This document shows, in pieces, positions 305 through 27,433 of a DNA stretch of 32,000 nucleotides (position 1 is its first letter; each line of letters starts with the position of its first letter). The notes beneath the pieces are model-generated. The model saw only the letters and a list, made by a program, of their open reading frames with translations, made no database searches and was not told the origin of the DNA. The position numbers and the translations under genes were made by a program. This DNA is from Candidatus Heimdallarchaeota archaeon (lineage in GTDB: Archaea; Asgardarchaeota; Heimdallarchaeia; Heimdallarchaeales; Kariarchaeaceae): contig JASBSB010000001.1 of NCBI GenBank assembly GCA_030149205.1, forward strand, positions 900,001 through 932,000. Direction: 5' to 3'.

Positions 305-1252
305 ATGGATCTGCATCGAGGTGTAAAAATAGTAGAAAATGAGAATAAACTTATTTTACTCCCAAATTTGACCACATTTAAATTAGGGTATCTAATTATT
401 CCAACTTCGATTTTGATCTTCTTTTCAATACCAGAGATTATGGCCATTTATCTTTTTGTGAAACATCAATTCTTTCTAACAGTGTCTGATTACTTTTGGA
501 TACTAGGGTTACCCATGCTTGTGTATTTATTTATAATTATTGGAATAACAAGAATTCCATCTATAAAGCAATCATTGCAAATAACCCCAATGTATTATTA
601 TATAATAGTTGTAACTTTTACAATTCTGATACCGTCAGTTGGTCTTGGATTCATCTCCGACACTTTTTTAGTAAACGTCACCAAAGGTCGTCTGTTGTAT
701 ATATTGGCATTTAGTAATTTTAGCATGTTAATATCTTTGAATTTGGGTTTCCTTGCTCTCTCTTTCTATACTTCTATTGTATTAGAAAGAAGAGGAAGGG
801 AGATAACTGGATACTCCTATTTCAGCTACTATATTCTTCCATTTGTCAAAATTCAGAGAAATTCAATCTACAAATCACAAGAACCAATGAAAATGAGATT
901 CTTTATACAAGACAAGAACCGAGAATCAGTAAAAGATGGGCAGGTATATGCGTCTTATTCATATACACTGAATGAATTTTTAAACCTTCAAGAGGGACCC
1001 AACAAGAAATTTTTGCTTGGTCTGTATGGACCTGTTGATCAAGGACCGAATATTTTCGGAGATATTATAATTCAATCCAAAGAGAAAAAGGATATTCTTG
1101 AGACTATACAGAGGATCTCAACATTTTGTAAGGTTGAAATTGTGAAAATACCAGCCATTTTTGAGAAGGTTTCTCTGTCTGGTGCTGTTAAAAATGAATC
1201 TGCCAAAGATGGGAGAACCGCTGAACAGATCCTAACCGAAATGAAAACATAA
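305..1252 (+). CDS. Hypothetical membrane protein (about 4 TM segments plus soluble C-terminal domain)
   Basis: 315-aa ORF; four hydrophobic stretches in residues ~25-160, then a polar domain. No family recognised. Confidence 0.75.
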   Translation: MDLHRGVKIVENENKLILLPNLTTFKLGYLIIPTSILIFFSIPEIMAIYLFVKHQFFLTVSDYFWILGLPMLVYLFIIIGITRIPSIKQSLQITPMYYYIIVVTFTILIPSVGLGFISDTFLVNVTKGRLLYILAFSNFSMLISLNLGFLALSFYTSIVLERRGREITGYSYFSYYILPFVKIQRNSIYKSQEPMKMRFFIQDKNRESVKDGQVYASYSYTLNEFLNLQEGPNKKFLLGLYGPVDQGPNIFGDIIIQSKEKKDILETIQRISTFCKVEIVKIPAIFEKVSLSGAVKNESAKDGRTAEQILTEMKT

Positions 1253-1481
1253 CTTGTATTTCATTGAAATTTCTGAGTATTTACATCCCTCTCGTATTCA
1301 ACTGCATCAGACCAATAAATTGTTGATTTACCTTGTTAACAACATATTGACCGTCCCTCCTGTAAGTGATTCCCAGTTACCATACCCAGATGATATTTTC
1401 CCACCCTGAGACACTTTTAAAATTTTACAGATCCATTAAACCACCCGCTTAACCGTTAATTGGTAAATAGGATTACATTTT

Positions 1482-1640
1482 TCATAAAACTTGAAGAATT
1501 GTGTCTATTGCAAATAAAGCTATAGCATTTGCTGTATTATCTGCAAAAGCATCCCCTTGGCTCCTCCAAGGCAAGCTTGCAATGTAACGGAGAATAATTG
1601 ACCTATTGAGTATACTACATCTCAAAAGGTACTGTGGATA
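1482..1640 (-). pseudogene. Degraded remnant of a variable CT domain
   Basis: Manual translation ...ILRYIASLPWRSQGDAFADNTANAIALFAIDTILQVL* resembles ILMAIKSLPWWEQAFSFAAAAADSAAA of the full-length precursor; no start codon, upstream stop. Confidence 0.5.
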
Positions 1641-1710
1641 GATCCAAGGTCAGAATTAAGAGTTGGAATAATTTCTGGGAATGTTGTTATCAAATTGATC
1701 CACGAGGAAA

Positions 1711-1817
1711 CATTACCAATAATCCGTAAGCATGAAACTACCAATTATTGCTAATAAAGCTGATGTTGAAGGATAGAGGGTTTGATAAGTCTTAAGAACC
1801 AAAATAATCTAGATTTA
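1711..1817. repeat. ~107-bp dispersed direct repeat, copy 1 (others at 5254-5360 and 18053-18159)
   Basis: Shared core GCTGATGTTGAAGGATAGAGGG...AAGAACCAAAATA in all three copies. Confidence 0.9.
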
Positions 1818-1820
1818 TAA

Positions 1821-2060
1821 ATGACATATATCCTTGAAAATGATGAAGCCATTAATCTTGTTCAATTCAAATTGGAATCGATTCAAGAAGCTATTTCATC
1901 AATTTTAGATATGTGGAAAATTTCAACCATTGAGGAATTTTTGGATTTAACGAAGGAAGGTCAATTAGATGCAGCAGTCATGGATGCTATATCCATGCGT
2001 CAATTAATTCTTGACTTGGAGAAGTATCAAAGAATTTTACGAAAGCTAAAGGAAGGCTAA
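1821..2060 (+). CDS. Putative antitoxin partner of the downstream DUF6516 protein
   Basis: 79-aa acidic helical ORF, 2 nt upstream of the DUF6516-like gene; two-gene TA-like layout. Confidence 0.6.
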   Translation: MTYILENDEAINLVQFKLESIQEAISSILDMWKISTIEEFLDLTKEGQLDAAVMDAISMRQLILDLEKYQRILRKLKEG

Positions 2061-2062
2061 TA

Positions 2063-2428
2063 TTGTCAGATTCACTCATTAACCTTGATGTTGCAAGGAA
2101 TTTGATCATGGAAAATTTATCCTCTTATCTTAAATCAACCACAATTAGTGAATTAATGAGGGAGTTAAAACTTGTGTTTGATGCAGGGTTTACACTATTC
2201 ATTAGATACAATGATTATGGAGAGTATGGATATCAACTAATGTTTTCAAACAAAAAGTATGATTATGTACGATTTGATAACTATGATAAAGAATGGGAGG
2301 TTTCAACCAAACCTCATCATTTTCATTCTAAAGACCCTAAGAGTGTGATAGAAAGTCCAAAGAATGGTGACCCATCGCATGATATTCCCATATTATGTGA
2401 TTTTATTATTCAAGAGCTAAATTTGTAA
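2063..2428 (+). CDS. DUF6516 / TumE-like toxin family protein
   Basis: Motif VRFDNYDKEWEVSTKPHHFH matches the family pattern R[WY]DN...ST.PHH.H; 121 aa, TTG start. Confidence 0.7.
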   Translation: MSDSLINLDVARNLIMENLSSYLKSTTISELMRELKLVFDAGFTLFIRYNDYGEYGYQLMFSNKKYDYVRFDNYDKEWEVSTKPHHFHSKDPKSVIESPKNGDPSHDIPILCDFIIQELNL

Positions 2429-2609: not shown

Positions 2610-2912
2610 ATGTGCCCTCAGGCAGTGGAAAGTGAACCTTCGGTTAAAAAGGGAGATACCAGCATTATCCTCTTAAGAATCATGATTCTTATATTTGTTG
2701 GCATCATGTACCCGGTCTTAGTGCATTTGATAGCAGGGAGGGAACCGAGATTCATGTCCTGGAACATTTCATTCTTCCCCTATTCAATAAACTTTGTACT
2801 GGTGGTAGGATTACTTTATTTTCTGTTTTATCTAGGATACAAGCAGGAGGAGTTCAAAAAAGCAGCACTTGAAACCAATTATTCACTTGACCGAGAGGTC
2901 AAAAATAAGTAA
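2610..2912 (+). CDS. Small 2-TM membrane protein (gene X, copy 1)
   Basis: Nearly identical to 10407-10742 over ~85 aa; reading frame conserved in both copies. Confidence 0.7.
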   Translation: MCPQAVESEPSVKKGDTSIILLRIMILIFVGIMYPVLVHLIAGREPRFMSWNISFFPYSINFVLVVGLLYFLFYLGYKQEEFKKAALETNYSLDREVKNK

Positions 2913-3188
2913 GAACACCAGCATAGTTATTGATATTCCAAAAAAGTATATCAGAAAATATGCCCTCTTGTGTTGTGTTTCGAATGTCATAAGTTTCTCT
3001 CTGTACACAGTAAGGAGAATGACAATCCAAAGTAATAACATATATGAATTATCTAATAGCGAAAATTTGTATACAGTGAAAAAATTTAGATAGATCGCTA
3101 GAATTACATAAATAATGGACAGTATAATAGCTAAACCAATATACCTTCGAAATTTTTTCTCATCCTCAGGACTAAAGGCAAGTTGCAT
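2883..3188 (-). CDS. 3-TM putative immunity/partner protein of CT type B
   Basis: Likely start ATG 3188 (MQLAFSPED..., AGGAG upstream). Homologous to 10907-11224 (FETQHKRAYFLIYFFGIS vs FQAKHKRISIFISALGVS). Confidence 0.75.
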   Translation of the reverse strand: MQLAFSPEDEKKFRRYIGLAIILSIIYVILAIYLNFFTVYKFSLLDNSYMLLLWIVILLTVYREKLMTFETQHKRAYFLIYFFGISITMLVFLLIFDLSVK

Positions 3189-3223
3189 ATATCTTCTCCT
3201 ATGATACTTCATTAATAAGTATA

Positions 3224-3345
3224 TCACCAAAAATGCGTGTTTGCATCGATAAATTTACTGTGAATAATGTTAAATACACTAATCCTGCAGATGCAGGGAG
3301 ACAAAAGATGTGAAGCAGCTAAAAGTACGAACTGCGACCACCCAA
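3224..3345 (-). pseudogene. CT type B remnant
   Basis: Reads AGLVYLTLFTVN/(1-nt deletion)FIDANTHFW* versus AGLMYFLTLFTVDFIDANTHYW* of 11243-11929. Confidence 0.8.
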
Positions 3346-3458
3346 TCCTCTTAAGTTTATAAATATCAATTGTTTAAGAGGCCTATCCGTTTGCTGAAGA
3401 CCATAGAAGAGAACTTGATTTATTTTCTAGTTGGTTGTGAACATGACCTTAAAACAGA

Positions 3459-3812
3459 CTAAAAGAACTGACTAAATAGTTGCATAGCTGCAGGAAAACT
3501 GCTCCAGAAAAGGAAGCCTAACACCAAAGCAAATATTACATTCACGATGACCTTCTGTTTCATGGGTATCTCCTCTCTGGGTCTTCGCTTATACCCGATC
3601 CTCTCGAACTGTTCCTCTTGCTCTTGAAGCAGCTCATCACGAAGAAAAAATATTGGAAAGAAAACAAGAAAGAGAGTCCAAATTACCACCCCTACAAGTG
3701 TTAAAACAGCCATCATTTCGGTCTTGGGACTAAAAGACAAGAAAAACATATCGCTGAAAATTATCAGCAGAGCTCTCCATTCACTGATTGTTCGAATCAT
3801 ATTCATATTCAT
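3459..3812 (-). CDS. Putative immunity/partner membrane protein of CT type A
   Basis: Start overlaps the precursor stop (TAATG). 3 hydrophobic segments. Homologous to 12067-12411 (FFPIFFLRDELL vs FFPLIFLRKETL). Confidence 0.8.
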   Translation of the reverse strand: MNMNMIRTISEWRALLIIFSDMFFLSFSPKTEMMAVLTLVGVVIWTLFLVFFPIFFLRDELLQEQEEQFERIGYKRRPREEIPMKQKVIVNVIFALVLGFLFWSSFPAAMQLFSQFF

Positions 3813-4894
3813 TACACCACAGTAATGTATGGGTCAGGATCACATAAATCTTTTATGGCTGCGTTTATTGATAGCATCAACCCATATAACCCATAGATTA
3901 AGGCTAGGGTCTTTAAATAGGGGGCTGCTGTTGCTGCCGCTGAATCTGCTGCTGCTGCAGCAAAAGAAAATGCCTGCTCCCACCATGGTAAAGATTTAAT
4001 TGCCATCAAAATTACTGAATAGATGAAACTTATCACAGCTACGATCACACTAAAAACACCATATGCATCACCATAGAAGATACCTTCTAAAAATGTTAAC
4101 ATTGTCATCGACATTCGACTGTTTAACCAAAAGAAAGCAGCAAAAAAGCGAATTTTGTTTACAAGTCTTCCGGAAGAAGCTAAAGTTGCTGTAAACAGTA
4201 TCCCTGCGATTGCTCCCACAATTGATGGTGCTGCATAATACCTTTCATTTGCGCTAAAATACCCTTCGTGATATGTGGTATGATAAATAGATTCACAAAT
4301 GCCAAGGAAATCGAAATTCAGTGGATTGTTTAGAACCAATTTTAATCTTCTAAAGAACGAGTTAAAAGCTCCTATTGTTTTGGAAAGATAGGCAGCAACA
4401 TACAAGGCACCTAGCACAGGTTCAATCCTCCCATTAAATGTTATTACCATCTTATTAGAGTCTACTGTAAGCTGCTTTAAACTTACTGAATCACAGGAGA
4501 GGAAGAAGTGCCTCTGAGAAACAGAGCTCTTCACCAGTGTGCTGATGAGGTTCCAGCTGATTAGCCCACCCTGTGAGAGGATGCCTTTGCTGTTGCCGTG
4601 TCCCACCCAAATGACTGGGCCAGTCCAGCTCAGGATCTGAGCGTTTGTCAGTGAGAACTGTGTGATGACTGCCATGGGGAAGTTGCTGAGCAGTGTTTGA
4701 ACTGCCTTCTGCTCTGCCATGCTGTTGCCAAAGACAACCAGCAGAGGACTGACCTGTGATGTTGCACTGGACTGTGGGACCAGTGGTGTCAGCAGGTTGA
4801 CGAGAATTGGGCTGCTTATCCCCGACAGGGAGATGGAGAGGACGAGAAACCCAACTGTTGTTAGTTTGAGAAATTGTTCGAATTTCGTAAACAT
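3812..4894 (-). CDS. Full-length precursor: signal/TM + caspase/CHAT-like (clan CD) peptidase domain + hydrophobic variable CT (type A)
   Basis: Likely start ATG 4894 (MFTKFEQFLKL + hydrophobic stretch), ~43 nt downstream of a TATA box; the ORF track extends to 4969. PVIWVGHG (His codon 4598-4600) and HFFLSCDS (Cys codon 4493-4495), followed by VITFNGRIEPVLGA, match clan CD strand-HG / strand-C motifs. The CT is Ala-rich and hydrophobic and ends CDPDPYITVV. Confidence 0.75.
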   Translation of the reverse strand: MFTKFEQFLKLTTVGFLVLSISLSGISSPILVNLLTPLVPQSSATSQVSPLLVVFGNSMAEQKAVQTLLSNFPMAVITQFSLTNAQILSWTGPVIWVGHGNSKGILSQGGLISWNLISTLVKSSVSQRHFFLSCDSVSLKQLTVDSNKMVITFNGRIEPVLGALYVAAYLSKTIGAFNSFFRRLKLVLNNPLNFDFLGICESIYHTTYHEGYFSANERYYAAPSIVGAIAGILFTATLASSGRLVNKIRFFAAFFWLNSRMSMTMLTFLEGIFYGDAYGVFSVIVAVISFIYSVILMAIKSLPWWEQAFSFAAAAADSAAATAAPYLKTLALIYGLYGLMLSINAAIKDLCDPDPYITVV

Positions 4895-4934
4895 GTCCTG
4901 AGAGTATAACTCTCTGAGTAGGTTTAGCATGTGG

Positions 4935-5360
4935 TGTATAAAAACCCTTACCGTTTTTTTTTTTTGCAAACTTTAATTTTTGAAATTCACAATTGTATGA
5001 AAAATATGCTAAGTGTAAAAATTTTTACTGTGAATTTTGCGGTTGCAAAAATATGTTTCACAGGAATATGGATAGAATGCCCTTAAATCGCTAAATAGTC
5101 AAGTCAGTTTTTCTATAGCGTAAATTTTTTTATCTAGGCTGTTAATTGATTTTATAAGTGAAAAATTGTGGATGTAATTCAATAATTTATGTAAACAACT
5201 AATTTTTTACAAACTTATGCATTATCCCTTTATTAAACTTTGTTCATGTTAGCTATCACCAGTTATCCGTAAGTAAGAAACTACCATTTATTGCAAATAA
5301 CGCTGATGTTGAAGGATAGAGGGTTTGATACGTCTAAAGAACCAAAATACTCTAGATTTA
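4935..5360. repeat. ~430-bp duplicated non-coding upstream element, copy 1 (copy 2 at 17731-18159)
   Basis: Colinear alignment by eye over the whole length, e.g. TTTGCAAACTTTA.TTTTTGAAATTCAC.ATTGTAT and CAAGTCAGTTTTT.TATAG; roughly 75-80% identity (estimate). Confidence 0.9.
4937..4944 (-). promoter_or_regulatory. Archaeal TATA box for the precursor operon
   Basis: TTTTTATA on the minus strand; the equivalent box sits at 17733-17740 in the duplicated element. Confidence 0.55.
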
Positions 5361-5422
5361 TTCATGCTGAATTTCAGGTAGATATGCAGGCACTCAGTCT
5401 ATAAACTACATTATCAAGATTT

Positions 5423-6127
5423 TCAGACCAATACGAGCTTTAATTTTGACCTCCACGGTGCAGGAAGTTTGTATGTAAGATAATTGGCTACAATGCCATA
5501 GGGTAAAAATATAAACAGAATGGCGATAAGAATATTGGGTATATTTAGGGTTAAGACACGTGTGAAGGGGAGATAAGGTGATTTGTTGCTACTGGGTCCA
5601 CTAAAGGCAGTTAGAGGAACTGCAAAATACACAACTGTTGCAATCATAAATGGATAAAGCCCCCTAAAGAATTTCAACCCTCTTACATAGTTTTTAGATA
5701 AGTTTATCTGATTTAAGTGAAGTGCAGCAATTTTTTTTATTTCAAGTAAAGATACTCCAAACATAAAAAGAGTGAATATTAGATAGGAGACTAAATGTAT
5801 CCAGGTGTTCGAAAATGCTGGAAAGTAAAGAATGAAACTTAAGATAATTATTAAGATAAAAATAGAAGTTCGAATAAAATTTAATTGTCTCACTTTAATT
5901 GAATAAATTGTATCACAGTTATTAATCAAGGTATTGATAAAACAATATTTACTGCAAAAATTACACATTTCTTGTATTAAAAATTCTGTCAGTGAATTGG
6001 CTATTTTATTTACAGGGCTAAAAAACGCCCCTGCAACGCTGGCTGCATCAGGACCTAGAGCTATAATTTTAACTGCTTTATTTCTATATTTTGACCTATA
6101 GAGGGCACTCATAGCTGTCTCTTTCAA
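5423..6127 (-). CDS. Hypothetical 4-TM membrane protein, possibly with a fused CT remnant at its N-terminus
   Basis: 234-aa ORF; four TM-like segments in the last ~160 aa; true start uncertain. Confidence 0.6.
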   Translation of the reverse strand: MKETAMSALYRSKYRNKAVKIIALGPDAASVAGAFFSPVNKIANSLTEFLIQEMCNFCSKYCFINTLINNCDTIYSIKVRQLNFIRTSIFILIIILSFILYFPAFSNTWIHLVSYLIFTLFMFGVSLLEIKKIAALHLNQINLSKNYVRGLKFFRGLYPFMIATVVYFAVPLTAFSGPSSNKSPYLPFTRVLTLNIPNILIAILFIFLPYGIVANYLTYKLPAPWRSKLKLVLV

Positions 6128-6938
6128 TGAACCCTGCCTCCTCCTCCGTTACCTGCCAGCCAGTGCACTGCCTCAGATCTGAGATGAACGCATCACAGAG
6201 CTCCTGTGAGCTCCAAAACACGATATAACGCAGGTCATTATGCTCAACAATGGCGGCAAAGGCCTTACTTCCGGGGAACTCTGTATCTTCCTTGGTTTTA
6301 TACAAGAAATTTTTCTTGATAATCAGCACTTGGTCAGCCAATGAGAACCTCACAGACCGATATTTTCCATACTTTGACCAGATCTTGAGGGAAAACATCT
6401 CATTTGAATGGTTTATGACGAGAATGACCCGGTGCATAATTCGCATTACCCAGTTTGCGAAGACATACATGATAGCTCCACCAGGGAACCCTATTAAAAT
6501 CACAGGGAGAAAATATAATGTGCTGTTAGACACTTGAATATTTGGCAACCAAAGATAAATATAGCTCAACAGGTAAATAATCAATGAAATAATGAAAGCA
6601 ATCATGTTTTTAGTCACCCCATCAAATGCTGGGAGCACTTCTGAGTGTCTATATTTCTTACGATAGATTCTGATACCAGAGACCGTTCCGAAATAAGTTA
6701 TAAGAGAAGCATTGACTGTTAATAATAATCCTAGAAGGGTCACCGAGCTGAAGACGACGATCGTGTGAAAGCCATATGATGTAATTACAGCCAACCCCAC
6801 TACAAAGAGTCCAAGTATAAGCGGAAGAAAGATGGAGCTAATCATAAGCATGTATCTAATAGGGGCCACAAACCTGTACTCACAGACCTGTTTCTCCGGG
6901 TCATAGTGAAAGAAGTACAAATATTGATGATCTATCAT
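6096..6938 (-). CDS. 4-TM + soluble C-terminal domain partner protein (paralog of 13503-14351)
   Basis: 280 aa; C-terminal ~85 aa nearly identical to the 282-aa paralog (KKNFLYKT.EDTEFPGSK...RQCTGWQVTEEEAGFIERDSYE.PL). Confidence 0.85.
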   Translation of the reverse strand: MIDHQYLYFFHYDPEKQVCEYRFVAPIRYMLMISSIFLPLILGLFVVGLAVITSYGFHTIVVFSSVTLLGLLLTVNASLITYFGTVSGIRIYRKKYRHSEVLPAFDGVTKNMIAFIISLIIYLLSYIYLWLPNIQVSNSTLYFLPVILIGFPGGAIMYVFANWVMRIMHRVILVINHSNEMFSLKIWSKYGKYRSVRFSLADQVLIIKKNFLYKTKEDTEFPGSKAFAAIVEHNDLRYIVFWSSQELCDAFISDLRQCTGWQVTEEEAGFIERDSYECPL

Positions 6939-6974
6939 AAGTCTAACAACAACTCATTTGTTTTAAACAACACT

Positions 6975-7172
6975 TTATCCAAATCTCCATGATGGCAAAT
7001 TAGAAATATCATCTGTATCTATGAGATTATTCCATACCTTGAGAACCCACAAGAAAGTCACAAGAATTATTGAAGAAATTTGGATAACTTTCAATAATTC
7101 TGTTCCACCACAAGAGACCGAAATTTCCGCAATTGAGAGACCACTCTCCTGCAACCAAGGGACACCGAACAT
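6975..7172 (-). pseudogene. CT remnant (type C)
   Basis: FGVPWLQESGLSIAEISVS...LWVLKVWNNLIDTDD carries the PW.Q motif, a hydrophobic helix and an acidic tail; lies 36 nt upstream of the 280-aa partner. Confidence 0.5.
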
Positions 7173-7239
7173 GTGTTGATTGACCTGTCATTCAACTTAA
7201 AGCCACCACTACAGATATCATGGTGGTTGTTTCCATATC

Positions 7240-8079
7240 TTAATCCTTAGAACCTTGCTGCGTCTTTGGTGGTAAATTTACATACCAGGTGCGACCACCC
7301 AATGCCCCTGAATTCCTAGATACCAATTGTTTAAGGGGCTTTTCCACTTGGGGAAGTCCATGAGCAATAATCTCTCGCTCTTTAACAGTAAATTCTGTGC
7401 CATCCTTCTTGGCTATTTTTCCTAGATCAACATTGGACACTCTTTTCTTGTAATTAAGAACATGTAGGATCAGAGTAAAACTATAAAACAAATTCCAGGC
7501 TACTAGACTGGCAGTGAAAAAAGCGACAAAGTAAACATTGTTGGCAACTAGCGGAGACATTATCTGAGGCATTGCAAATAAGGCTAATATTAGTAGTACA
7601 GGATACCCTATAAGTGGAAACCATGAAAGCAGCACTCCACCGATTCTTATCGGTTTGGGTAGCTCATAAAACAACCCCTCACTCTTGAGCGTCTGATGGA
7701 TGCCAGAAATATGTTGACGAAAACGGTCATCTGGGTAGATCTGATACAGCTTGTAAGGCTGTTCCTGTTGGATCAGCCCCAGCACTAAGTTTTCTGAGGA
7801 AGATAGACGGAATGATTTGGATTGATGGTCTAGACCTAAGTAGACAAATCGTTTGTCTATGGAGATCAGCCCCTTTTCTAACAGACTGTAAAGAACACAG
7901 GTCACAAGCCTGACCTTCCCACCATAGAGATAGCCCCAGACCTCAAATTCATGACCTGGGACATCTGGTGCGGTTTTGAGGTGAACACCCAAATTTGTGG
8001 CGATAACAAGAATGAGGGGAGTAAGTGTTCCGGATACTGTAATAACAGCTAGCATAACTGTTAGCAAGAGAAGCAACAT
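7240..8079 (-). CDS. TIGR04222-like membrane protein, copy 1 (partner of CT type D)
   Basis: FEVWGYLYGGKVRLVTCVLYSLLEKGLI resembles the YE.AYL.GG..R....L..L...GL signature; N-terminal TM plus two later TMs. Confidence 0.65.
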   Translation of the reverse strand: MLLLLLTVMLAVITVSGTLTPLILVIATNLGVHLKTAPDVPGHEFEVWGYLYGGKVRLVTCVLYSLLEKGLISIDKRFVYLGLDHQSKSFRLSSSENLVLGLIQQEQPYKLYQIYPDDRFRQHISGIHQTLKSEGLFYELPKPIRIGGVLLSWFPLIGYPVLLILALFAMPQIMSPLVANNVYFVAFFTASLVAWNLFYSFTLILHVLNYKKRVSNVDLGKIAKKDGTEFTVKEREIIAHGLPQVEKPLKQLVSRNSGALGGRTWYVNLPPKTQQGSKD

Positions 8080-8127
8080 ATCTTCATATCACCCTAGTTT
8101 TTGGATACTTGAATCCAATAAAAATCT

Positions 8128-8835
8128 TTAGATTATCTCCCAAGGCATACTCGCTATTCCGTCCGGGTCGGGCAAATCTGACGCGACTCCCGCAAGAAAC
8201 CACCCCCAGCTTAATAAGCCTGCTAATATTAAGCTAGCTCTAACAATCCAGTATGCAGGGGTACTTGCTGCCATAAGTTCTGAACCGACACCAAGAAGTG
8301 CCTAAAATGATAACCTACATGCTACTGCAACCATAATGGATGCAATGATAGGTACAAGCCCCCATAAAGCACCGAGAAATGCACCTACACTTATTCCTTT
8401 TACCAATAACCCAACGAAATTTGCCATTGGAGTTACAATTGGTAAAATAAACTTTACGATAACGGTCTTGAGTGTACCTTTTATTATTGAGTAAGTAGAA
8501 AGAACTAGACTTGTTAAAAGCAGCACAAAATTTAATGTGTCCCAAAAGGGTTCTGCACCATAAAAATTAGGAAAAGACCCAATAAGAAACAATAGTTTTG
8601 TAGCACCAGATATTAGATTCTGAGTATAAGCCCCCAAATTTTTAGTCAAATACCTCCACGGATTCAATAGGTTCAGGATCTTCGCTAAATTATATGAGAT
8701 AAGATTTGCTCCAATTATTGCATCAATAGCAGTTCCAAAGCTGTAGACATACTTGCCGGTTGCAGAGGTGAGCTCTGTGACCTTGGAAGAGTCACAGGAG
8801 AGGAAGAAGTGCCTCTGAGTAGCAGAACCCTTCAC
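8128..8835 (-). pseudogene. Orphan cassette type D with one in-frame TAG at 8302-8304
   Basis: Starts VKGSATQRHFFLSCDS. After the TAG the frame stays open for 57 codons: ALLGVGSELMAASTPAYWIVRASLILAGLLSWGWFLAGVASDLPDPDGIASMPWEII*. Confidence 0.85.
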
Positions 8836-10309: not shown

Positions 10310-10406
10310 ATTAAAGAACTGTAATAATATCAAAGATACATAATAATTTGAATAGAAAACATAATCAGGACAAGCCTGATGCACAAAACATATAAAGAAA
10401 TCATGA

Positions 10407-10742
10407 GTGTCAACTGTAGTGTGCCCTCAGATAGTAGAAAGTGAACCTTCGGTTGAAAAGGGGGATACCAGCATTATCCTCTTAAGAATCATGATTCTTA
10501 TATTTGTTGGCATCATGTACCCGGTCTTAGTGCATTTGATAGCAGGGAGGGAACCGAGATTCATGTCCTGGAACATTCCATTCTTCCCCTATTCGATAAA
10601 TGTCATCTTAATCATAGGTTTATTGTATCTGCTCTTTTATCTGGCTTACAAGCAAGAGGAGTTCAAAAAAGCAACACTTGAAAAGCTTTACTCATCTGAC
10701 ACTGAGATCAAAGGCGAGGAGAAGGATCAACATGGTCACTGA
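10407..10742 (+). CDS. Small 2-TM membrane protein (gene X, copy 2)
   Basis: Near-identical paralog of 2610-2912. Confidence 0.7.
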   Translation: MSTVVCPQIVESEPSVEKGDTSIILLRIMILIFVGIMYPVLVHLIAGREPRFMSWNIPFFPYSINVILIIGLLYLLFYLAYKQEEFKKATLEKLYSSDTEIKGEEKDQHGH

Positions 10743-10906
10743 TTTTTCAAACTGTTAAATTAGAATATTTTGATTCTGTGTTGCTTTTCAAGGTTTATAA
10801 CCTTTATACTGTAAATTCAATAGCATTCCAGAGTAGGTTCAAATAAATACTAACTTATATTTTAAAGAAGGTAGAGAGAAATTTTTTTTAATAAAATAAT
10901 AAAAGT

Positions 10907-11224
10907 TTAAAATTTATAAATATCAAAAATTAGTAGACTGATAAGAAGATAACTTGATACACCTAGTGCACTTATAAAAATGCTAATCCTCTTGTGTTTT
11001 GCTTGAAATAGATCATAGCTCCTCTTAAAACTTGTTAACACAAGTACCAAAATCGCATTGAAACCAAATAATAGATCAAGACTATTTGGTCTAAAACCTG
11101 TGAACAAATATAAATAAATAAGTAAAATTATCCAAATGATTAGCAGAATTGTTAATAATTTTAGATATTTGGAAGTTTTATTGGATATTTCTAATCTTTC
11201 ACTATCATTCACAGTTTTTATCAT
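10907..11224 (-). CDS. 3-TM putative immunity/partner protein of CT type B
   Basis: 18 nt downstream of the CT-B stop, with a GGTGA ribosome-binding site; homolog of 2883-3188. Confidence 0.8.
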   Translation of the reverse strand: MIKTVNDSERLEISNKTSKYLKLLTILLIIWIILLIYLYLFTGFRPNSLDLLFGFNAILVLVLTSFKRSYDLFQAKHKRISIFISALGVSSYLLISLLIFDIYKF

Positions 11225-11242
11225 ATCATCACCTATAAATTC

Positions 11243-11990
11243 TTACCAGTAATGGGTATTTGCATCGATAAAATCCACTGTGAATAAAGTCAAAAAGTAC
11301 ATTAATCCTGCAAGGGCAGCAGCAGTTAGTAAAACTACTGCTATTGTAGCGACACCATTTTTTACAGTATCAGCATTCAATGTAGCATAAGCCATTGGTT
11401 GAGCCCACCAAACCAGAGATAAAATTTTTGCCGTTATGATTGCACCAATGCCCGTGATTAATTTATATAAGATATATACCATTCGGTGTGGGTTTGGATT
11501 CCTTCCATTTATAAAATCGATTACCCATACCACAAAATCATAAATAAAAGATGCTAAAGTTAATGCACCTGATACAAAAGAAGCCACACTGAAACCTATA
11601 GCCTTATTAGTTAAAGGAAAGAGAAATGCAAATATTGAGAAAAATATATACCCAATAGTATACACCTCTTCACCACCTAGGTACATAGGTAGGATGGAGT
11701 TTGGGTTCATGTTTATCTGCATTATCCTGCTCAGCAACTTACTAAAAAAAGACATGACGCTTTTACCGGCTGAAACCAATATCTGTGCAGAAATAATGTT
11801 TGCAGCAAAAATTGCATCCACCACCATCCCAAAGCTGTAGACATTCTTTCCGGTTACATGGGTGAGCTTTATGACCTTTGAAGAATCACAGGAGAGGAAG
11901 AAATGCCTCTGGGCGGAAGAGCTCTTCACCAGTGTGCTGATGAGGTCCCAGCTGATCAGTCTATTTTGTGAGAGGATGACTCTGTTGTTG
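11243..11990 (-). pseudogene. Orphan (5'-truncated) cassette type B: partial peptidase domain + intact CT
   Basis: Frame ANNRVILSQNRLISWDLISTLVKSSSAQRHFFLSCDS...DANTHYW*; the HG motif is absent and an in-frame TAA lies just upstream. Confidence 0.85.
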
Positions 11991-12066
11991 GCACAAATAA
12001 TTAATTTTTATCCTAAAATTTGAATTGAGATGTAAGTTTATCATTTGACAAACGTGAAAATAGCAG

Positions 12067-12411
12067 TCAAAATATTCTAAATAGTTGCTTATTAAGATCT
12101 GATATGAACAATGCAAGTAGAATTGTTAAAAATACAGCATTCACAATTATTCTATTTTTCTTGCTCATGTCTGCCTTCTTCATTGGATGTATATCATACT
12201 TATCATAAAGTTCTTCTTGTGTCCTCAAAGTCTCCTTACGTAGAAAAATTAATGGAAAAAAAGCTAAGAAGAAAATCCATGCTACAAACCCAAATAACCA
12301 AAATAGTATCATATTTAGAGAAAATGTCGGACTATAGATCCTAAAAGCAAAACTATAGGACAAAAGCATTATATATATTCGATACTTGCTGAAGGTTTGT
12401 AAAAATTTCAT
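12067..12411 (-). CDS. Putative immunity/partner protein of CT type A, copy 2
   Basis: Homologous to 3459-3812; 2 nt after the CT-A remnant stop. Confidence 0.8.
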   Translation of the reverse strand: MKFLQTFSKYRIYIMLLSYSFAFRIYSPTFSLNMILFWLFGFVAWIFFLAFFPLIFLRKETLRTQEELYDKYDIHPMKKADMSKKNRIIVNAVFLTILLALFISDLNKQLFRIF

Positions 12412-12413
12412 GA

Positions 12414-12545
12414 TTACACCACAGTAATATATGGATCAGGATCACATATACTTTAGACAAACTGTGTTTACAGAATACAAAAAGCTTTTTGTTGACCCAT
12501 GAGCCAATATAATTTAAAACCCATAAGAATTATTTCTGTCAAAAC
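12414..12545 (-). pseudogene. CT type A remnant
   Basis: Ends ICDPDPYITVV*, matching the precursor tail (CDPDPYITVV*); upstream EIILMGFKLYWLMGQQKAF resembles SVILMAIKSLPWWEQAF; contains deletions and stops. Confidence 0.8.
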
Positions 12546-12616: not shown

Positions 12617-13018
12617 CTAGGTTTTATAATTTTTTAATCTGTCATCAAAGGTCAGTATTTCATCACAGGCTAATTTCTGTGCGCTGAGAAACACAACACA
12701 ATCTGTAAAAGTCAACGGTTTTCGCTCCCCCATCTCAGATTGAATTAGCTTCCAAGCACTTAGTATCAAATCTTGATTGCTATAGTAAATGCTAATAAAT
12801 TCTTCTGAGAACAACAGCTCACCCCATTGGATTGCCTCGTCAAGTCTAGATACTCTAAGCATGAAATTTATAAATTCATCAATTACATAGTCTGAAATTA
12901 TTAGTTCTGCACTTTTGGTGGCACTTATTTGATCCAAAATGTCATTTGCTGCATCATGAAATTTGTCTCTGGTGTTTGCCAGTCCAACAAGAAATGAGGT
13001 ATCAATGAAATATTTCAT
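12617..13018 (-). CDS. vapC: PIN-domain ribonuclease toxin
   Basis: YFIDTSFL, VIDEF, TFTDC, TFDD acidic PIN motifs; 133 aa. Confidence 0.9.
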   Translation of the reverse strand: MKYFIDTSFLVGLANTRDKFHDAANDILDQISATKSAELIISDYVIDEFINFMLRVSRLDEAIQWGELLFSEEFISIYYSNQDLILSAWKLIQSEMGERKPLTFTDCVVFLSAQKLACDEILTFDDRLKNYKT

Positions 13019-13290
13019 TGCCCCTTCTCACCATACAAGACCTCATCAATCATCTCTGGTGATGTTTCTATGTCCCAGGGTTTCTGAAGCCCCCTGATTC
13101 TCTTGGTTATTCCTTCGACAGGTTTTCTTCTTGCTAACAATAACAGATCCAGATTCTTTTCACCATACTCAATGAGTAATTCTAGGGCTTCCTGCTGGGT
13201 TAATTTAATATCATATCTCAGCAGAATTGAGGCCAGTAGCTTATCAAGGGATCTTTTCGTGTGGTCAGATATCTTTATTGAGCTTGCCAT
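13015..13290 (-). CDS. vapB: VapB-type antitoxin
   Basis: 91 aa; ATGA overlap with vapC; C-terminal TSPEMIDEVLYG is typical of archaeal VapB. Confidence 0.7.
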   Translation of the reverse strand: MASSIKISDHTKRSLDKLLASILLRYDIKLTQQEALELLIEYGEKNLDLLLLARRKPVEGITKRIRGLQKPWDIETSPEMIDEVLYGEKGQ

Positions 13291-13502: not shown

Positions 13503-14351
13503 CTACAAAGGCCACTCATAGCTGTCTCTTTCAATGAACCCTGCCTCTTCCTCAGTCACCTGCCAGCCAGTGCACTGCCTCAGCTCTGAGATGAACGCAT
13601 CACAGAGCACCTCTGAGTTCCAAAACACAAGATAACGCAGGCCATTATGCTCAACAATAGCAGCAAAGACCTTGCTTCCAGGGAATTCGGTATCTTCCCT
13701 GGTTTTATACAAGAAATTTTTCTTGATAATCCGCACAGGGTCAGCCAGTGGGAACCTCACCGACCGATACTTCCCCCACATTGACCAGAGGTTGAGGGAG
13801 ACTGTTTCATTAGTGTGATTAATATTGATACTCACATGGAATAGTAATCGATTCAACATAGCTGCCAGCGACATGTTGATGAGTATTCCTGGGAGCAGCA
13901 AAAATATTGGAACCATATAAAGTCTGTTGTTTGGGTTGATTCTTGGTAAATTGGGTAACCAGAGATACACAAACCCAAGCACGTAGAGCAATGTGACAAT
14001 GATGAAGGCAGCTAGGTTTTTGCTCAGCCCGTCAAATGCGGGAGAATATATCTCTGTGTGTCGATATTTTTTATAGGATATTCGTATAAAAGCAATCAAT
14101 CCGAACCAAGAGACCAGCCCTGCATTTAAACTCAGTAAAACACCAACATAGGTCAGAGGGCTGAAGGGGACCACCTTATCTAAACCTCCTGAGGTAAGTG
14201 TCACACCAGCCAACAACCCGAAAACCAAAAATGGGAGAATGATTAAAATTGCCAATAACTTGTATTTAACAGGAGAAGAGAACCTATACTGACATGTTTG
14301 GGTATCTGGATCAAAGTGGAAATAATACATGTGCTGATAGTCCATCTTCAA
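13503..14351 (-). CDS. 4-TM + soluble C-terminal domain partner protein (paralog of 6096-6938)
   Basis: 282 aa, colinear with the 280-aa paralog; ATG at 14345 is a possible start. Confidence 0.85.
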   Translation of the reverse strand: MKMDYQHMYYFHFDPDTQTCQYRFSSPVKYKLLAILIILPFLVFGLLAGVTLTSGGLDKVVPFSPLTYVGVLLSLNAGLVSWFGLIAFIRISYKKYRHTEIYSPAFDGLSKNLAAFIIVTLLYVLGFVYLWLPNLPRINPNNRLYMVPIFLLLPGILINMSLAAMLNRLLFHVSININHTNETVSLNLWSMWGKYRSVRFPLADPVRIIKKNFLYKTREDTEFPGSKVFAAIVEHNGLRYLVFWNSEVLCDAFISELRQCTGWQVTEEEAGFIERDSYEWPL

Positions 14352-14373: not shown

Positions 14374-14585
14374 TTAAGTTCTCTCTTTCATCCACCAAAT
14401 AGCCAAGAAGGCAGTTCCAATTGCAGCTATGTTACCCACTGATGGTAAAGGACACCGATGAAGTTTGCAAGTGACCTGTACAAGGCAAAGCCTGCTGAGG
14501 TGACTGTCAGTGCAATGTATGTGATCAATGGGAAACTGAAAAAGTTTGAAATACAGAAGTTTTGAAGAATAGCAGGTTTACAAAC
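14374..14585 (-). pseudogene. Probable hydrophobic CT remnant
   Basis: Two overlapping hydrophobic frames (ITYIALTVTSAGFALYRSLANFIGVL / LPSVGNIAAIGTAFLAIWWMKERT*) ending just upstream of the 282-aa partner. Confidence 0.4.
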
Positions 14586-15011: not shown

Positions 15012-15510
15012 TTACCAAAAATGTGTCTTTGTATCAACAAAATCCCATAGAAATGATATGAGGTTCGAGATGACCAAAGTAGGTTCAACAGAATTATCTT
15101 TGCTGCAGACGCAATTGAATTTGATGTAGTATCAGCAGCCAATGCCGCATTTGGACTAAACTGATCCCACCAGGTAAAATGAGATATAACGTCTTTAACC
15201 ACTGATTCAATTTCAGAAGTTACTGCAAAGAGTCCTGTTAACACCATATAACGGTGGGTTTTTGCCCTGAATAGAATCAACAATTGTTGAAATCAATAAG
15301 AAGAGGGCTGGTGCTACAACCTAGTAACCACCAGCAAATTTAGCAGCATTTATCGTAATAATCGCACCAGTTGATGGGAACAAAGTCAGAAAAATCGAGA
15401 GTCCAGTTATACCTATTGTATAGACCTCTTCACCACCCAGATACATGGTTACCGAGATGATTGTGCTGATGTTAGGTGCTGAGATTTGACTTAATGTTTC
15501 AGAAGTTTGC
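15012..15510 (-). pseudogene. CT type B-like pseudogene
   Basis: MYLGGEEVYTIG is identical to CT-B. Then an in-frame TAG (15321-15323), two frameshifts, HFTWWDQ...AADT, and the end DFVDTKTHFW* (stop 15012-15014). Confidence 0.8.
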
Positions 15511-15608
15511 CCATAGTCAGGAATCTCAAAAAATCAAAATAGGTTAATTTCTACTTAAATTCTAATTCAAATGCATTTCTTTAAACTATAAACTCACTTA
15601 TCTATTAA

Positions 15609-16400
15609 TTAGTGCGGTTCAATTGCTTTTGAATTTCTAGATATCAATTGTCTAAGGGGCTTTTCCGCTTGGGGAAGTCCATGAGCAATAATTTCTTGCT
15701 CTTTTTCGGTAAAAGCTGTGGCATCCCTCTTGGTAATTTTTCCTAATATGACATTGGACACTCTTTTCTTGTAATAAAGAACACTATAAAATAGAAAAAA
15801 ACTATAAAACATATTCCAAACTACTAGACTGGCAGTGAAAAAAGCGACAAAGTAAAGATAGTTGGCAACTAGCGGAGACATTATCTGAGGCATTGCGAAT
15901 AAGGCTAATATTAGTAGTACAGGATACCCTATAAGTGGAAACCATGAAAGCACCACTCCACCGATTCTTATCGGTTTGGGTAGCTCATAAAACAACCCCT
16001 CGCTTTTGAGCGTCTGGTGGATGTCGGAAATATGTTGAAGAAAACGGTCATCATGGTAGATAAGGTACAGCTTGTAAGGCTGTTCCTGTTGGATCAGCCC
16101 CAGCACTAAGTTTTCTGAGGGAGATAGACGGAATGATTTGGATTGATGGTCTAGACCTGAGTAGACAAATCGTTTGTCTACGGAGATCAGCCCCTTTTCT
16201 AACAGACTGTAAAGAACACAGGTCACAAGCCTGACCTTCCCACCATAGAGATAGCCCCAGACCTCAAATTCATGACCTGGGACATCTGGTGCGGTTTTAA
16301 AGTGAGCACCCAAATTTGTGGCAATCACAAGAATGAGGGGAGTAAGTGTTCCAGATACAGTAATAACAGCTAGCATAACTGTTAATGAGAGAAGCAACAT
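15609..16400 (-). CDS. TIGR04222-like membrane protein, copy 2
   Basis: Near-identical to 7240-8079 except for the C-terminus. Confidence 0.65.
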   Translation of the reverse strand: MLLLSLTVMLAVITVSGTLTPLILVIATNLGAHFKTAPDVPGHEFEVWGYLYGGKVRLVTCVLYSLLEKGLISVDKRFVYSGLDHQSKSFRLSPSENLVLGLIQQEQPYKLYLIYHDDRFLQHISDIHQTLKSEGLFYELPKPIRIGGVVLSWFPLIGYPVLLILALFAMPQIMSPLVANYLYFVAFFTASLVVWNMFYSFFLFYSVLYYKKRVSNVILGKITKRDATAFTEKEQEIIAHGLPQAEKPLRQLISRNSKAIEPH

Positions 16401-16448
16401 ATCTTCATATCACCCTAGTTTTTGGATACTTGAATCCTATAAAAATGT

Positions 16449-16610
16449 TCAGAATACCTCCCAAGGCATACTCGCTATTCCGTCCGGGTCGGGTAAATCT
16501 AACGCGACTCCCGCAAGAAACCACCCCCAGCTTAATAAGCCTGCTAATAGTAGACTGGCTCTAACAATCCAGTATGCAGGTGTGCTTGCAGCCACAAGTT
16601 CTGCCCCAGG
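16449..16610 (-). pseudogene. CT type D remnant
   Basis: AELVAASTPAYWIVRASLLLAGLLSWGWFLAGVALDLPDPDGIASMPWEVF*; several differences from 8128-8301 are synonymous in this frame. Confidence 0.85.
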
Positions 16611-16910
16611 TAGGTTAATTTTCGATAAATAGCAAAAGAGCTATTTGGATTGAATGGTGTGAATTTTTGGATATCTTTCACTTTACTGCCGCTTAGTTTT
16701 TATCCCTTTCAATTTGTACGGAGTCCAATTAATATACAGAACAGTATGTTCTCTAAGCTTAGGGAATTTAATGTAGGATACTGTTTCTTTATTCAGTACA
16801 TACTGGGTTTAAAAATAAATTCAAACTTATTTATTTATAAACTAATATGAAATACAATTGTGAATTCTACTTTTGAGCTGAAATCTTAAAGATTTATTAC
16901 AGGTTGAAAG

Positions 16911-17702
16911 TTATTCATTTAAACCAATTGTATCTTGTGGAACTACAAACTCAATTCTTCTGCTTTTGGAATTGGAGCTGACCAATTTTCTTAAAGGGTC
17001 TTCTTTTTTAGGCAACCCATGAGCAATAATTTCTCTCTCTTTTTCGGTAAATTCTGTCCCATCCTCTTTGGAAATTTTTTCCAATTTAAGATTAGAGACT
17101 GGAGCCTTGTAATTAAGAAAATCATTGGCTACAACCATGGAAAATACCAAAAACCAAGTTATTTGAAGTACAGCTAAACTCAAATAAAGGTAAAAGGGGA
17201 ACTCAGAACCAAATAATGCAAGAAGATAATAACCTACGACAGGATAACCCGGAAGAAGTACTCCTATGATCCTTAAAGGTCTTGGGAGTTCATAAAACAA
17301 CCCCTCACTCTTGAGCGTCTGGTGGATGCCGGAAATATGTTGAAGAAAACGGTCATCTGAGTAGATCTGATACAGCTTGTAGGGTTGTTTTTCCCCTAAT
17401 AACCTCAGAAATAGGTTTTCAGACTTTGTTAGATTAAACTTATTGGATTGATTATCTGATTTTAGGTGAACAAATCTTTTGTCTATGGAGATTAAATCTT
17501 TTTGTAATAAAGAATAAAGCACACAAGTTACAAGCCTGACCTTACCACCATAGAGATAGCCCCAGACCTCAAATCCATGACCTGGTATCTTTGGTGCAAT
17601 TTTGTAATGACCAACTAATTTGGTTGTAATCACAAGCCCGAATGGAGCAATTGACGTCAATATGGTCAAAATTAACAGGAGTTGTAGGAGAAGGATTGAC
17701 AT
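16911..17702 (-). CDS. TIGR04222-like membrane protein, copy 3 (divergent)
   Basis: Shares FEVWGYLYGGKVRLVTCVLYSLL and IYSDDRFLQHISGIHQTLKSEGLFYELP; preceded by GAGGTAA and a TATA box. Confidence 0.65.
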   Translation of the reverse strand: MSILLLQLLLILTILTSIAPFGLVITTKLVGHYKIAPKIPGHGFEVWGYLYGGKVRLVTCVLYSLLQKDLISIDKRFVHLKSDNQSNKFNLTKSENLFLRLLGEKQPYKLYQIYSDDRFLQHISGIHQTLKSEGLFYELPRPLRIIGVLLPGYPVVGYYLLALFGSEFPFYLYLSLAVLQITWFLVFSMVVANDFLNYKAPVSNLKLEKISKEDGTEFTEKEREIIAHGLPKKEDPLRKLVSSNSKSRRIEFVVPQDTIGLNE

Positions 17703-17730
17703 AAACCAATTACCTCATCATACCATAGAG

Positions 17731-18159
17731 TGTATAAAAACCTTTATCGCTTAGCTTATTTTTTTTTGCAAACTTTATTTTTTGAAATTCACTATTGTAT
17801 AAAAACAAAATCTGTGTGAAATTTTTCACTGTGATATTTACGATTGCAAGAATAATTTTCACAGAAATATAAATAGAGTGCCTTTAAATCATCATTTGAT
17901 CAAGTCAGTTTTTTATAGATCAATTTTTTTATCTGGACTATTAGTTTATTTTATAAGTAATACATTGCAGCTGTACTTCAATAATTTGCATAAGCGACTA
18001 ATTTTTTACAAACCTAGATGTTACCCCTTTATTAAATTTAGTTCATATTGGCCATCACCAATAATCCGTAAATAAGAAACTACCAATTATTGTAAATAAA
18101 GCTGATGTTGAAGGATAGAGGGGTTGATTAGTCTTAAGAACCAAAATACTCTATATTTA
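17731..18159. repeat. ~430-bp duplicated non-coding upstream element, copy 2
   Basis: Colinear with 4935-5360; TATA box at 17733-17740, ~30 nt upstream of ATG 17702. Confidence 0.9.
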
Positions 18160-18535
18160 TTAATCACATATGTTACTGCAATCATAATGGATACAACGAT
18201 AGGTACAAGCCCCTGATTAAAATTTTTAGATGACAACTATGAATAAATCGTGGACACTCAAAAAGATGTGATTCTCATCCTATTCCATTCTGAATAAAAA
18301 GCTTGCACCTGAATCTTTTCCCCTCTCCTATTGCCCATCGAAAAAAAACATACTAATCATCTTGCAAATTACGATCATAAGGTCTTATTTGGAAATGATT
18401 TAGAGTTTAACTGTAATCTTCAATTTTTGGGCATAGATATTATGGTGATTTATACAATGAACTGATGATTACGTTGATTAGTTAGCTAATGAAACTTAGC
18501 AGAGGGATTATATTCTCTGGCAAAATACTTACCTT

Positions 18536-27432: not shown

Positions 27433-27433
27433 G

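Follow-up and report, generated by a model that had tools for sequence, protein, structure and literature searches.

The analysed stretch of DNA (hereafter the window) is 32,000 nucleotides long (C4:900001-932000) and comes from the 3.3-Mb archaeal genome of a Candidatus Heimdallarchaeota archaeon (35% GC, 12 contigs), in which contig C4 measures 995 kb. On its minus strand, at window positions 1250-18250, lies an array of gene cassettes centred on one full-length gene for a precursor protein, which consists of a conserved N-terminal part (N-domain) and a hydrophobic C-terminal domain (CT), and which is followed directly by a small gene for a membrane protein (the partner). With moderate confidence, we read this locus as the expression site and silent-cassette store of an Asgard-specific polymorphic, toxin/immunity-like two-gene system. 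The initial annotation, made from the letters of the window, had described one complete precursor at 3812-4894, three orphan cassettes that start inside its conserved domain, decayed CT remnants, and intact membrane genes directly downstream of most CTs, and all four elements are present in the sequence. Repeats within the array match each other down to E 1e-113 in a self-comparison of the window.

The reading frame of the precursor is open on the minus strand over 3812-4969, and ATG 4894 is its likely start because a B recognition element (BRE)/TATA-like sequence, TTTTTATAC, lies ~45 nt upstream. Signal peptides of the classic cleavable type are visible in the alignment of precursor relatives, and a word-based protein search with the precursor returned a match to itself only; a back-translated pattern scan of genome contigs gave no match. 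The expressed gene is made up as follows:

4934-5365, minus strand: promoter element of ~430 bp, with the BRE/TATA-like promoter, upstream of the precursor
3812-4894, minus strand: full-length precursor of 360 aa from ATG 4894, with signal peptide, clan-CD domain and CT-A
~4762-4300, minus strand: clan-CD domain of the precursor, with the His codon at 4598-4600, the Cys codon at 4493-4495 and a conserved Leu-Gly at 4301-4306
~4300-3815, minus strand: CT-A, five-helix and hydrophobic, with an acidic tail

The conserved domain of the precursor spans ~150 aa, and an AlphaFold 2 model built with 29 relatives has a predicted local distance difference test score (pLDDT) >90 across residues 50-200. 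Exhaustive structural alignment against 48,161 solved chains placed SAVED-CHAT first (Z 12.0, 147 residues aligned, root-mean-square deviation 3.6), followed by legumain (Z 9.4) and the asparaginyl ligase OaAEP1, and then by metacaspase, caspases, the cysteine protease domain (CPD) of MARTX, Csx29 and PIGK (Z 7.6-8.2). The top Foldseek matches were SAVED-CHAT and the CPDs of V. cholerae and C. difficile (E ~1e-3 for CHAT and CPD), and the matching clusters of the AlphaFold database were CHAT, Peptidase C80, DUF7379 and DUF4347. Among the 29 relatives the invariant columns are one His and one Cys only, and a hydrophobic strand precedes each of the two (model residues 94-97 and 128-132). On the strength of these structural matches and of the invariant His and Cys behind hydrophobic strands, we assign the modelled domain to clan CD (caspase-hemoglobinase fold) with an intact His-Cys dyad, which bears out the caspase-like precursor proposed at the outset; peptidase activity and self-cleavage are predicted. 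Directly after the domain a Leu is nearly invariant (Leu222-Gly223, 4301-4306, in the numbering of the 385-aa ORF, where the dyad is His124 and Cys159).

By sequence, the N-domain appears to fall outside any described family, in agreement with the initial failure to recognise it. No Pfam or NCBIfam model matches; for Pfam CHAT (PF12770) and Peptidase_C80 (PF11713) in particular, the precursor gave no match at E up to 1 and the 29 relatives none at E up to 0.1. The precursor and orphans likewise found no match in NCBIfam or the protein atlas, and a profile search of the precursor domain against the Protein Data Bank ranked the MARTX CPD first at a non-significant E of 0.28. No description of the family was found in the searchable literature, whose coverage did not extend to the archaeal polymorphic toxin survey of Makarova et al. 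2019 (mBio).

The evidence for cassette exchange comes from the orphans. All three orphan open reading frames (ORFs) (8302-8835, 9420-10235 and 11243-11929) carry the region of the Phe-Phe-Leu-Ser-Cys-Asp-Ser motif of the precursor ORF (3812-4969), and homology to the precursor begins inside the conserved domain in each of them, at 8839, 10297-10304 and 11990-11992. The array also extends past the window into an inverted mini-cluster, where a further orphan begins in the same way:

4487-4596, minus strand: crossover box in the precursor, 110 nt, from the codon after His-Gly through Ser-Cys-Asp-Ser
10188-10297, 11882-11990, 8789-8839 and L004:~8900-9000: copies of the box
8128-8839, minus strand: orphan D, with the 5′ box and CT-D; in-frame TAG at 8302-8304, beyond which the frame runs on to an acidic tail ending at 8131
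9420-10304, minus strand: orphan B, with the 5′ box, the His codon replaced, and an intact CT-B; ORF from GTG 10235
11243-11992, minus strand: orphan C, with the 5′ box lacking the His, and an intact CT-C; ORF from GTG 11929
C4:891862-895538, inverted, 6 kb before the window: satellite cluster in the order F8, F2, orphan CT, F3c
L004:8873-9655 (C4:893873-894655), plus strand: satellite orphan (C4:893906), which also has this 5′ box and contains an in-frame TAA

Over the 110-nt box, the precursor and the four orphans (the satellite C4:893906 included) are 73-90% identical, and beyond it identity falls abruptly to 33-55%. CT-C has 29% identity to CT-A. In the orphans, unrelated sequence stands in place of the His codon. 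Synonymous divergence is 0.17-0.29 within the box versus 0.58-0.80 in the next 36 codons, and because it is so low inside the box we attribute the similarity to recent recombination or gene conversion, beyond what protein constraint alone would leave. Recoding of the in-frame stops (TAG in orphan D, TAA in C4:893906) was considered and rejected: as different codons at different positions, they are read as nonsense mutations.

The C-terminal domains share an architecture and little else. CT-A, modelled alone from 103 sequences, forms a five-helix bundle (pLDDT 76), and we take the CT to be without a recognisable fold, since the best solved match to this model was the membrane part of WbaP at Z 7.6, which is noise level for helical bundles, and Foldseek gave E >= 0.5. 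No colicin was among the solved matches listed for the model (best Z 7.6, pLDDT 76). Of 105 representative CTs, 94 have 2-5 hydrophobic segments, 31 begin with a Gly/Pro-rich linker and ~59 end in an acidic D..D.[DN] tail; BLAST divides them into 24 groups, the biggest with 50 members. These common segments, tails and linkers suggest divergent versions of one membrane domain rather than assorted unrelated toxins. In the window, three CT copies are intact and ten are broken, so that the decayed remnants proposed initially are there, although their estimated number of about seven was slightly low. Besides orphan D, the broken copies are:

18213-18170, minus strand: CT-D fragment, preceding a promoter-element copy and partner F4c
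16401-16640, minus strand: CT-D tail remnant, 92% nt identity to 8080-8282, directly before F4b
15035-15503, minus strand: frameshifted CT remnant related to CT-C and CT-A, before p112
14439-14528, minus strand: CT remnant, 70% aa identity to the C4:893906 orphan, directly before F3b
12417-12449, minus strand: CT-A tail remnant, 94% nt identity to 3811-3846, directly before F13b
6975-7172, minus strand: CT tail remnant ending in a ...PSWRFG motif, directly before F3a
6091-5899, minus strand: CT-B-type tail fragment, 76% nt identity to 9572-9756, forming the first ~75 codons of a 234-aa ORF
3227-3328, minus strand: CT-C tail remnant, 81% nt identity to 11245-11312, directly before F14a
1450-1829, minus strand: decayed array end, with a promoter-element fragment at 1711-1829 and a stop-riddled CT-like stretch at ~1450-1600; no partner gene

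Nearly every CT or CT remnant has an intact ORF with several transmembrane (TM) segments immediately downstream, and 2-4 hydrophobic segments are predicted in all partners. Several CT/partner junctions overlap or nearly touch (3812; 9420-9427; 14989/14993); the initial annotation had noted frequent translational coupling. The partners of the array, with one fragment, are the following:

3459-3812, minus strand: F13a, 117 aa, 2 TM; its start overlaps the precursor stop
2883-3230, minus strand: F14a, 115 aa, 3 TM
3326-3404, minus strand: C-terminal part of an F4-type partner, the sole broken partner found
5423-6127, minus strand: 234-aa membrane ORF, 4 TM, with a CT-B-type fragment fused at its start
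6096-6938, minus strand: F3a, 280 aa, 4 TM and a soluble C-terminal part
7240-8079, minus strand: F4a, 279 aa, TIGR04222-like membrane protein
9002-9427, minus strand: p141, 141 aa, 3 TM; 8-nt overlap with orphan B
10907-11224, minus strand: F14b, 105 aa, 3 TM; 18 nt past orphan C
12067-12411, minus strand: F13b, 114 aa, 2 TM; 36% aa identity to F13a
13503-14351, minus strand: F3b, 282 aa
14651-14989, minus strand: p112, 112 aa, 3-4 TM; 3 nt past the frame of the CT remnant
15609-16400, minus strand: F4b, 263 aa
16911-17702, minus strand: F4c, behind the promoter-element copy
16911-18213, minus strand: row of three pieces, namely the CT-D fragment (18213-18170), the promoter-element copy (18164-17730) and F4c (17702-16911)

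Partner ORFs have outlasted the CTs that they follow: 12 are intact and two broken or missing, against three and ten for the CTs (Fisher p = 0.002). Together with the repeat E values, this contrast between intact and broken copies places the array beyond chance. Paralogous pairs of partners have ratios of nonsynonymous to synonymous substitution (dN/dS) of 0.19-0.49, from which we conclude that partners are maintained genes even beside lost CTs. Certain combinations of CT tail and partner recur in the window (CT-A with F13, CT-C with F14, CT-D with F4, and a PSW-FG tail with F3). The promoter element of the precursor is copied at 17730-18164 (81% identity) and in part at 1711-1829, and at the former copy F4c (17702-16911) occupies the place that the precursor has at the expressed gene. 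Pfam, NCBIfam and the protein atlas gave nothing for the partners except a weak TIGR04222 match for F4 (33.5 bits, cut-off 43). A complex prediction for CT-A (residues 185-360) with F13a, which used a 29-row alignment, scored 0.01, a value that bears on binding in neither direction. On the opposite strand, a small membrane gene that we call F12 (100-111 aa) converges on each F14, at 2610-2912 and 10407-10742 (both plus strand); its two copies are 82% identical with a dN/dS of 0.30, and were duplicated along with the CT-C/F14 module.

The same organisation recurs elsewhere. Of 400 genomes from the phylum, 112 contain the family according to a profile of the N-domain, frequently with 4-9 copies each, and the ORFs mostly measure 330-440 aa; closed genomes of the same order also carry it. 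Against 1.84 billion representative proteins, the profile retrieved 476 clusters, 274 of them at E <= 1e-10, with an almost uniform architecture, and the named members that were looked up (OLS30474.1 among them) are all hypothetical or membrane proteins of Heimdall- or Thorarchaeota. In four other genomes tandem copies have conserved 5′ parts (71-88% nt identity) and divergent CTs. For most family members, a same-strand multi-TM gene lies within -17 to ~120 nt downstream; partner genes are extremely diverse across the family, and one ~270-aa, 6-TM partner family recurs with one CT type across orders.

Two further loci are found in the genome of the window. At C4:766767-770482 a full gene (359 aa) is followed by a partner (271 aa), an orphan (221 aa) and a second partner (262 aa); this orphan has a 178-nt box (86.5%) in common with the full gene, followed by 54% aa identity, and the two partners are 31% identical to each other. 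The third locus, C5:7450-8965 on a 9-kb contig, has a 130-aa partner. Because C4:766767-770482 has the canonical bacterial order, the placement of most orphans upstream of the full-length gene, which had been presented as a departure from canonical loci, is true of the window locus and is a peculiarity of it.

That the CT is swappable and has a cognate membrane gene, as initially supposed, is supported across loci. Representatives whose N-domains are 55-69% identical have CTs only 1-36% identical, and partners track the CT. Over 23-25 loci, partner similarity correlates with CT similarity at a partial Spearman coefficient of 0.32-0.35 given the N-domain, a value that 0-3 of 2000 permutations reach, and partner similarity does not follow N-domain similarity. 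As CT and partner are both hydrophobic and the loci are related, we regard this covariation as moderate evidence only.

Relatives of a different kind occur in other Asgard genomes, where giant surface proteins (1200-2100 aa, with Big_7 or DUF2341 repeats) have the same clan-CD His/Cys domain N-terminally. In two of them the C-terminal end is formed by 4-6 hydrophobic helices, and a small membrane gene comes next. The giant relatives are located as follows:

L037:6355-12186
L038:1015-7362
L039:5071-8844
L036

The two genes are laid out in the way that defines polymorphic toxin systems, in the sub-class with a caspase-like domain before the variable C-terminus. The protein is predicted to be secreted, with a conserved N-terminal part, variable C-termini and abrupt breakpoints between them; a cognate gene stands directly downstream of the C-terminal domain in most loci; and 5′-truncated CT/partner orphans retain a homology stretch in common with the main gene. 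In polymorphic toxins, a caspase-like domain that precedes the C-terminal toxin domain is a well-established type of releasing peptidase (Zhang et al. 2012, PMC3482391). Like the systems of that survey, the present one has a Sec signal, a clan-CD domain before the variable C-terminus, a small downstream gene, orphan C-terminus/partner cassettes with a homology stretch, and a multi-copy, patchy distribution. Unlike them, the array is archaeal (Asgard), where the survey found polymorphic toxins to be rare (PMC3482391); its N-domain has no Pfam match; its C-termini are variants of one membrane-helix domain, not mutually unrelated enzymatic toxins; in the window locus the majority of orphans sit upstream of the full-length gene; and the toxin role is here presumed. 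The polymorphic toxin-like system of the initial annotation therefore stands as far as layout goes, including the recombination box on the orphan modules, and departs from classical loci in that the CT variants are divergent versions of one five-helix domain.

A full gene with several 5′-truncated CT/partner modules, all having in common a short conserved pre-CT stretch that recombination can use, is also the arrangement of MafB/MafI islands of Neisseria, of CdiA-CT/CdiI in contact-dependent inhibition (CDI) and of Rhs arrays. The present locus differs from these in lacking their delivery families and genes: Pfam scans found no match to two-partner secretion (TPS), FHA, VENN, RHS/YD-repeat or DUF1020 families in the 360-aa precursor or the orphans, and no two-partner or type VI secretion genes; moreover, its box lies inside the catalytic domain, between His and Cys. 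With Peptidase C80 CPDs (MARTX and large clostridial toxins) and with CHAT, the N-domain has in common the fold, a His-Gly...Cys dyad after hydrophobic strands and a Leu after the domain, but there is no significant sequence match, the His-Cys spacing is shorter (35 residues) and the present domain is predicted to be extracellular. Pore-forming colicins and the CdiA-CT ionophore of E. coli EC93 combine a hydrophobic helical effector with an immunity protein of 2-4 TM and ~110-180 aa that acts in the membrane. The likeness to these is one of logic only, a CT with a small membrane partner; the sequence searches and the matches listed for the CT-A model gave no colicin pore domain, and the receptor-binding and translocation domains of pore-forming colicins are lacking. 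Within archaea, the VARTIG modules of Thermococcales have a long first gene with a hypervariable C-terminal part, and the genes after it are variable and in part encode membrane proteins (Makarova et al. 2021, PMC8416519). Both are archaeal and organised in the manner of polymorphic toxins, with no recognised toxin in either; unlike VARTIG with its Ig domains, the present system is built on a clan-CD protein that is small, ends in a membrane tail and has a defined crossover box in its gene.

For the toxin/immunity-like system that we favour, we infer CT toxicity, neutralisation by the partner, processing and delivery along the following lines. By homologous recombination at the box, shortly ahead of the catalytic Cys, the expressed gene would exchange its post-box part and so gain a new CT, and a stored CT would thereby come to lie behind the promoter, the signal peptide and that half of the domain which bears the His; orphans, having neither signal peptide nor His, could probably not act alone. 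After Sec export, the clan-CD domain would cut its own chain, like the CPD domains of MARTX and large clostridial toxins. C80 enzymes cleave after Leu, and by this analogy the nearly invariant Leu past the domain (Leu222-Gly223, 4301-4306) is a candidate cut site. The CT would be a membrane-active effector, a pore or ionophore, that harms cells without the cognate partner, and the partner would block it inside the membrane like the immunity proteins of pore-forming colicins. Surplus partner genes would be retained for protection against the CTs of neighbours; contact, vesicles and protrusions are candidate delivery routes. The surplus of intact partners, and F4c behind its promoter-element copy, fit selection for protection from the CTs of other cells. 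A wider proposal, which we consider distinctly unlikely, is a lineage-wide Asgard cell-cell system of antagonism or compatibility, in which a cassette-switchable membrane-embedded domain is freed or armed by CPD-like self-processing, passes via membrane contact, protrusions or vesicles, and is read by a matching membrane partner; if real, it would be without precedent among the archaeal relatives of eukaryotes as a membrane-exchange weapon or identity system.

Several observations weigh against a toxin/immunity system. Searches of Pfam, NCBIfam, the protein atlas and known structures recognised no toxin family or fold among the CTs, and these look like variants of one membrane domain where classical loci have unrelated toxin folds. 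With its signal peptide and 3-5 hydrophobic helices, the precursor would be expected to stay in the membrane of the cell that makes it, and no delivery apparatus is evident at the locus. Outside the box, the N-domains of paralogs are ~25-45% identical, versus near-identity in the N-termini of CDI or Rhs proteins, and some family members have no same-strand adjacent partner. Breakpoints occur between CT and partner as well, which is awkward for strict co-inheritance: CT ends are 81-94% identical over their last 36-64 nt (3811-3846 versus 12413-12448; 3226-3289 versus 11245-11312) while the partners after them are only ~36% identical with saturated synonymous sites, and the junction is a candidate for either a further recombination breakpoint or a conserved signal for coupling. 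In the giant relatives the clan-CD domain lies 1000-1900 residues from the C-terminus, and processing of surface proteins fits these at least as well. Part of this evidence would suit a non-toxic polymorphic recognition system, in which the membrane CT and its matching partner are an identity or compatibility tag and cassettes switch identity, or vary a surface or phage-receptor structure. In Proteus IdsD/IdsE, to which such a system may be likened, specificity resides in membrane segments. Here too most of the variability falls within a membrane domain of a single architecture and goes together with that of a membrane partner, the CTs show no toxin signature, the protein should stay anchored with its ectodomain outside the cell, and the giant relatives are surface proteins with Ig-like stalks. 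We nonetheless hold recognition to be a real but unlikely alternative, as partners remain intact under purifying selection after CT decay and a stock of stand-alone partners is a prediction of immunity; spare partners are less obvious for a lock-and-key tag unless partners alone serve as receptors, and variation of a phage receptor should fall in the exposed domain, here the conserved part.

The locus might alternatively reflect an ordinary, fast-duplicating family of membrane-anchored extracellular clan-CD peptidases or transpeptidases, whose helices and partner form an anchoring or working complex (compare the legumain-like PIGK with its multi-TM subunits) and whose array is duplication debris. 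The fold does match legumain, OaAEP1 and human PIGK (Z 7.8-9.4), the architecture is uniform over 476 clusters, the ~270-aa, 6-TM partner family recurs beside one CT type across orders, and paralogous N-domains are quite diverged. Duplication debris does not readily account for every orphan being cut at the same point with a box low in synonymous divergence, for the repetition of this pattern at the second locus and in other genomes, for partners that outlive CTs, for a patchy multi-copy distribution (112/400 genomes), or for an array within an island of conflict genes, and we judge this explanation a real but improbable one. A SAVED-CHAT defence protease is the closest solved structure, and defence and toxin-antitoxin genes surround the array, as they might around an anti-virus suicide module in which a caspase/CHAT-like protease activates a membrane-disrupting tail in the infected cell, in the manner of protease-activated bacterial gasdermins and of the CHAT effectors of cyclic-oligonucleotide-based anti-phage signalling systems (CBASS) or type III CRISPR. 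This is very unlikely, since the cleavable signal peptides of the relatives should place the protease domain outside the cell, no sensor domain is present, and silent cassettes and spare partners have no role in such systems. Misassembly of paralogs from different strains is a concern in a metagenome-derived genome with a repeat-rich region, but is barely credible here: the contig is 995 kb long, 98% of sampled words of window 3000-12500 are present in an independent assembly of the source sequencing run, the repeats are short and diverged (73-92%) rather than near-identical, and the same architecture occurs in many other genomes, single-contig ones included. One further sequencing run, from a hydrothermal vent, contains 7% of the words, and no RNA run was among those listed as containing them.

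What is known about the locus under the toxin/immunity reading is the cassette logic; what is new is the N-domain family, the membrane CT and the partners, in a lineage where systems of this sort are essentially unexplored. To our knowledge, polymorphic toxin systems in archaea are regarded as rare and bacteria-derived, none has been tested there, and competition and mutual recognition among Asgard archaea are almost unexplored. Every genetic hallmark of cassette exchange is there, with a mapped crossover box, cognate partners and a reserve of spare ones, and the three intact CTs and twelve partners of the locus make concrete testable pairs, in addition to the predicted self-processing site. 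Should the CTs be membrane-active toxins, the system would form an effector/immunity class of its own, new to science, and open a way into the study of contact between cells in the prokaryotes most closely related to eukaryotes; should they not be toxins, strong in-membrane co-variation would remain as an unusual specificity system.

Scans of the window for tRNAs and Rfam families gave no matches, and no integrase or recombinase gene was seen in it. Genes of other kinds lie within and around the array. Inside it, at window 1821-2428 (plus strand), a 79-aa ORF precedes a 121-aa TumE-family toxin (Pfam PF20126, E 1.4e-6) in a TumE toxin-antitoxin pair, and a PIN-domain (VapC-like) gene with an overlapping 91-aa upstream gene occupies 12617-13290 (minus strand). 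A paralogous PIN pair at C4:851550-852245 adjoins F8/F2 membrane genes 48 kb upstream. The membrane family F2 (315-334 aa) has three copies with a dN/dS of 0.23-0.33, and F8 (289-296 aa) has two; neither has a family match, and they may be further partner-type genes or a separate system. Their sites, and that of the PIN pair of the array, are:

13290-12617, minus strand: PIN toxin-antitoxin pair, within the array and outside the cassette system
305-1252, plus strand; C4:852740-854635; C4:891862-893779: F2/F8 sites, beside the array or the satellite cluster

With TumE and PIN modules inside the array and restriction-modification genes nearby, the surroundings fit a conflict island. The restriction-modification cluster (window 25302-29023) has a TdeIII-type restriction endonuclease between two DNA methylase genes (N6_N4_Mtase/UPF0020). 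A 490-aa leucine-rich-repeat protein is encoded at window 21642-23114 (plus strand; LRR_14, E 9e-44), and window 19001-20000 is very AT-rich, with a GC fraction of 0.20 against ~0.35-0.40 around it and no ORF >= 60 aa.

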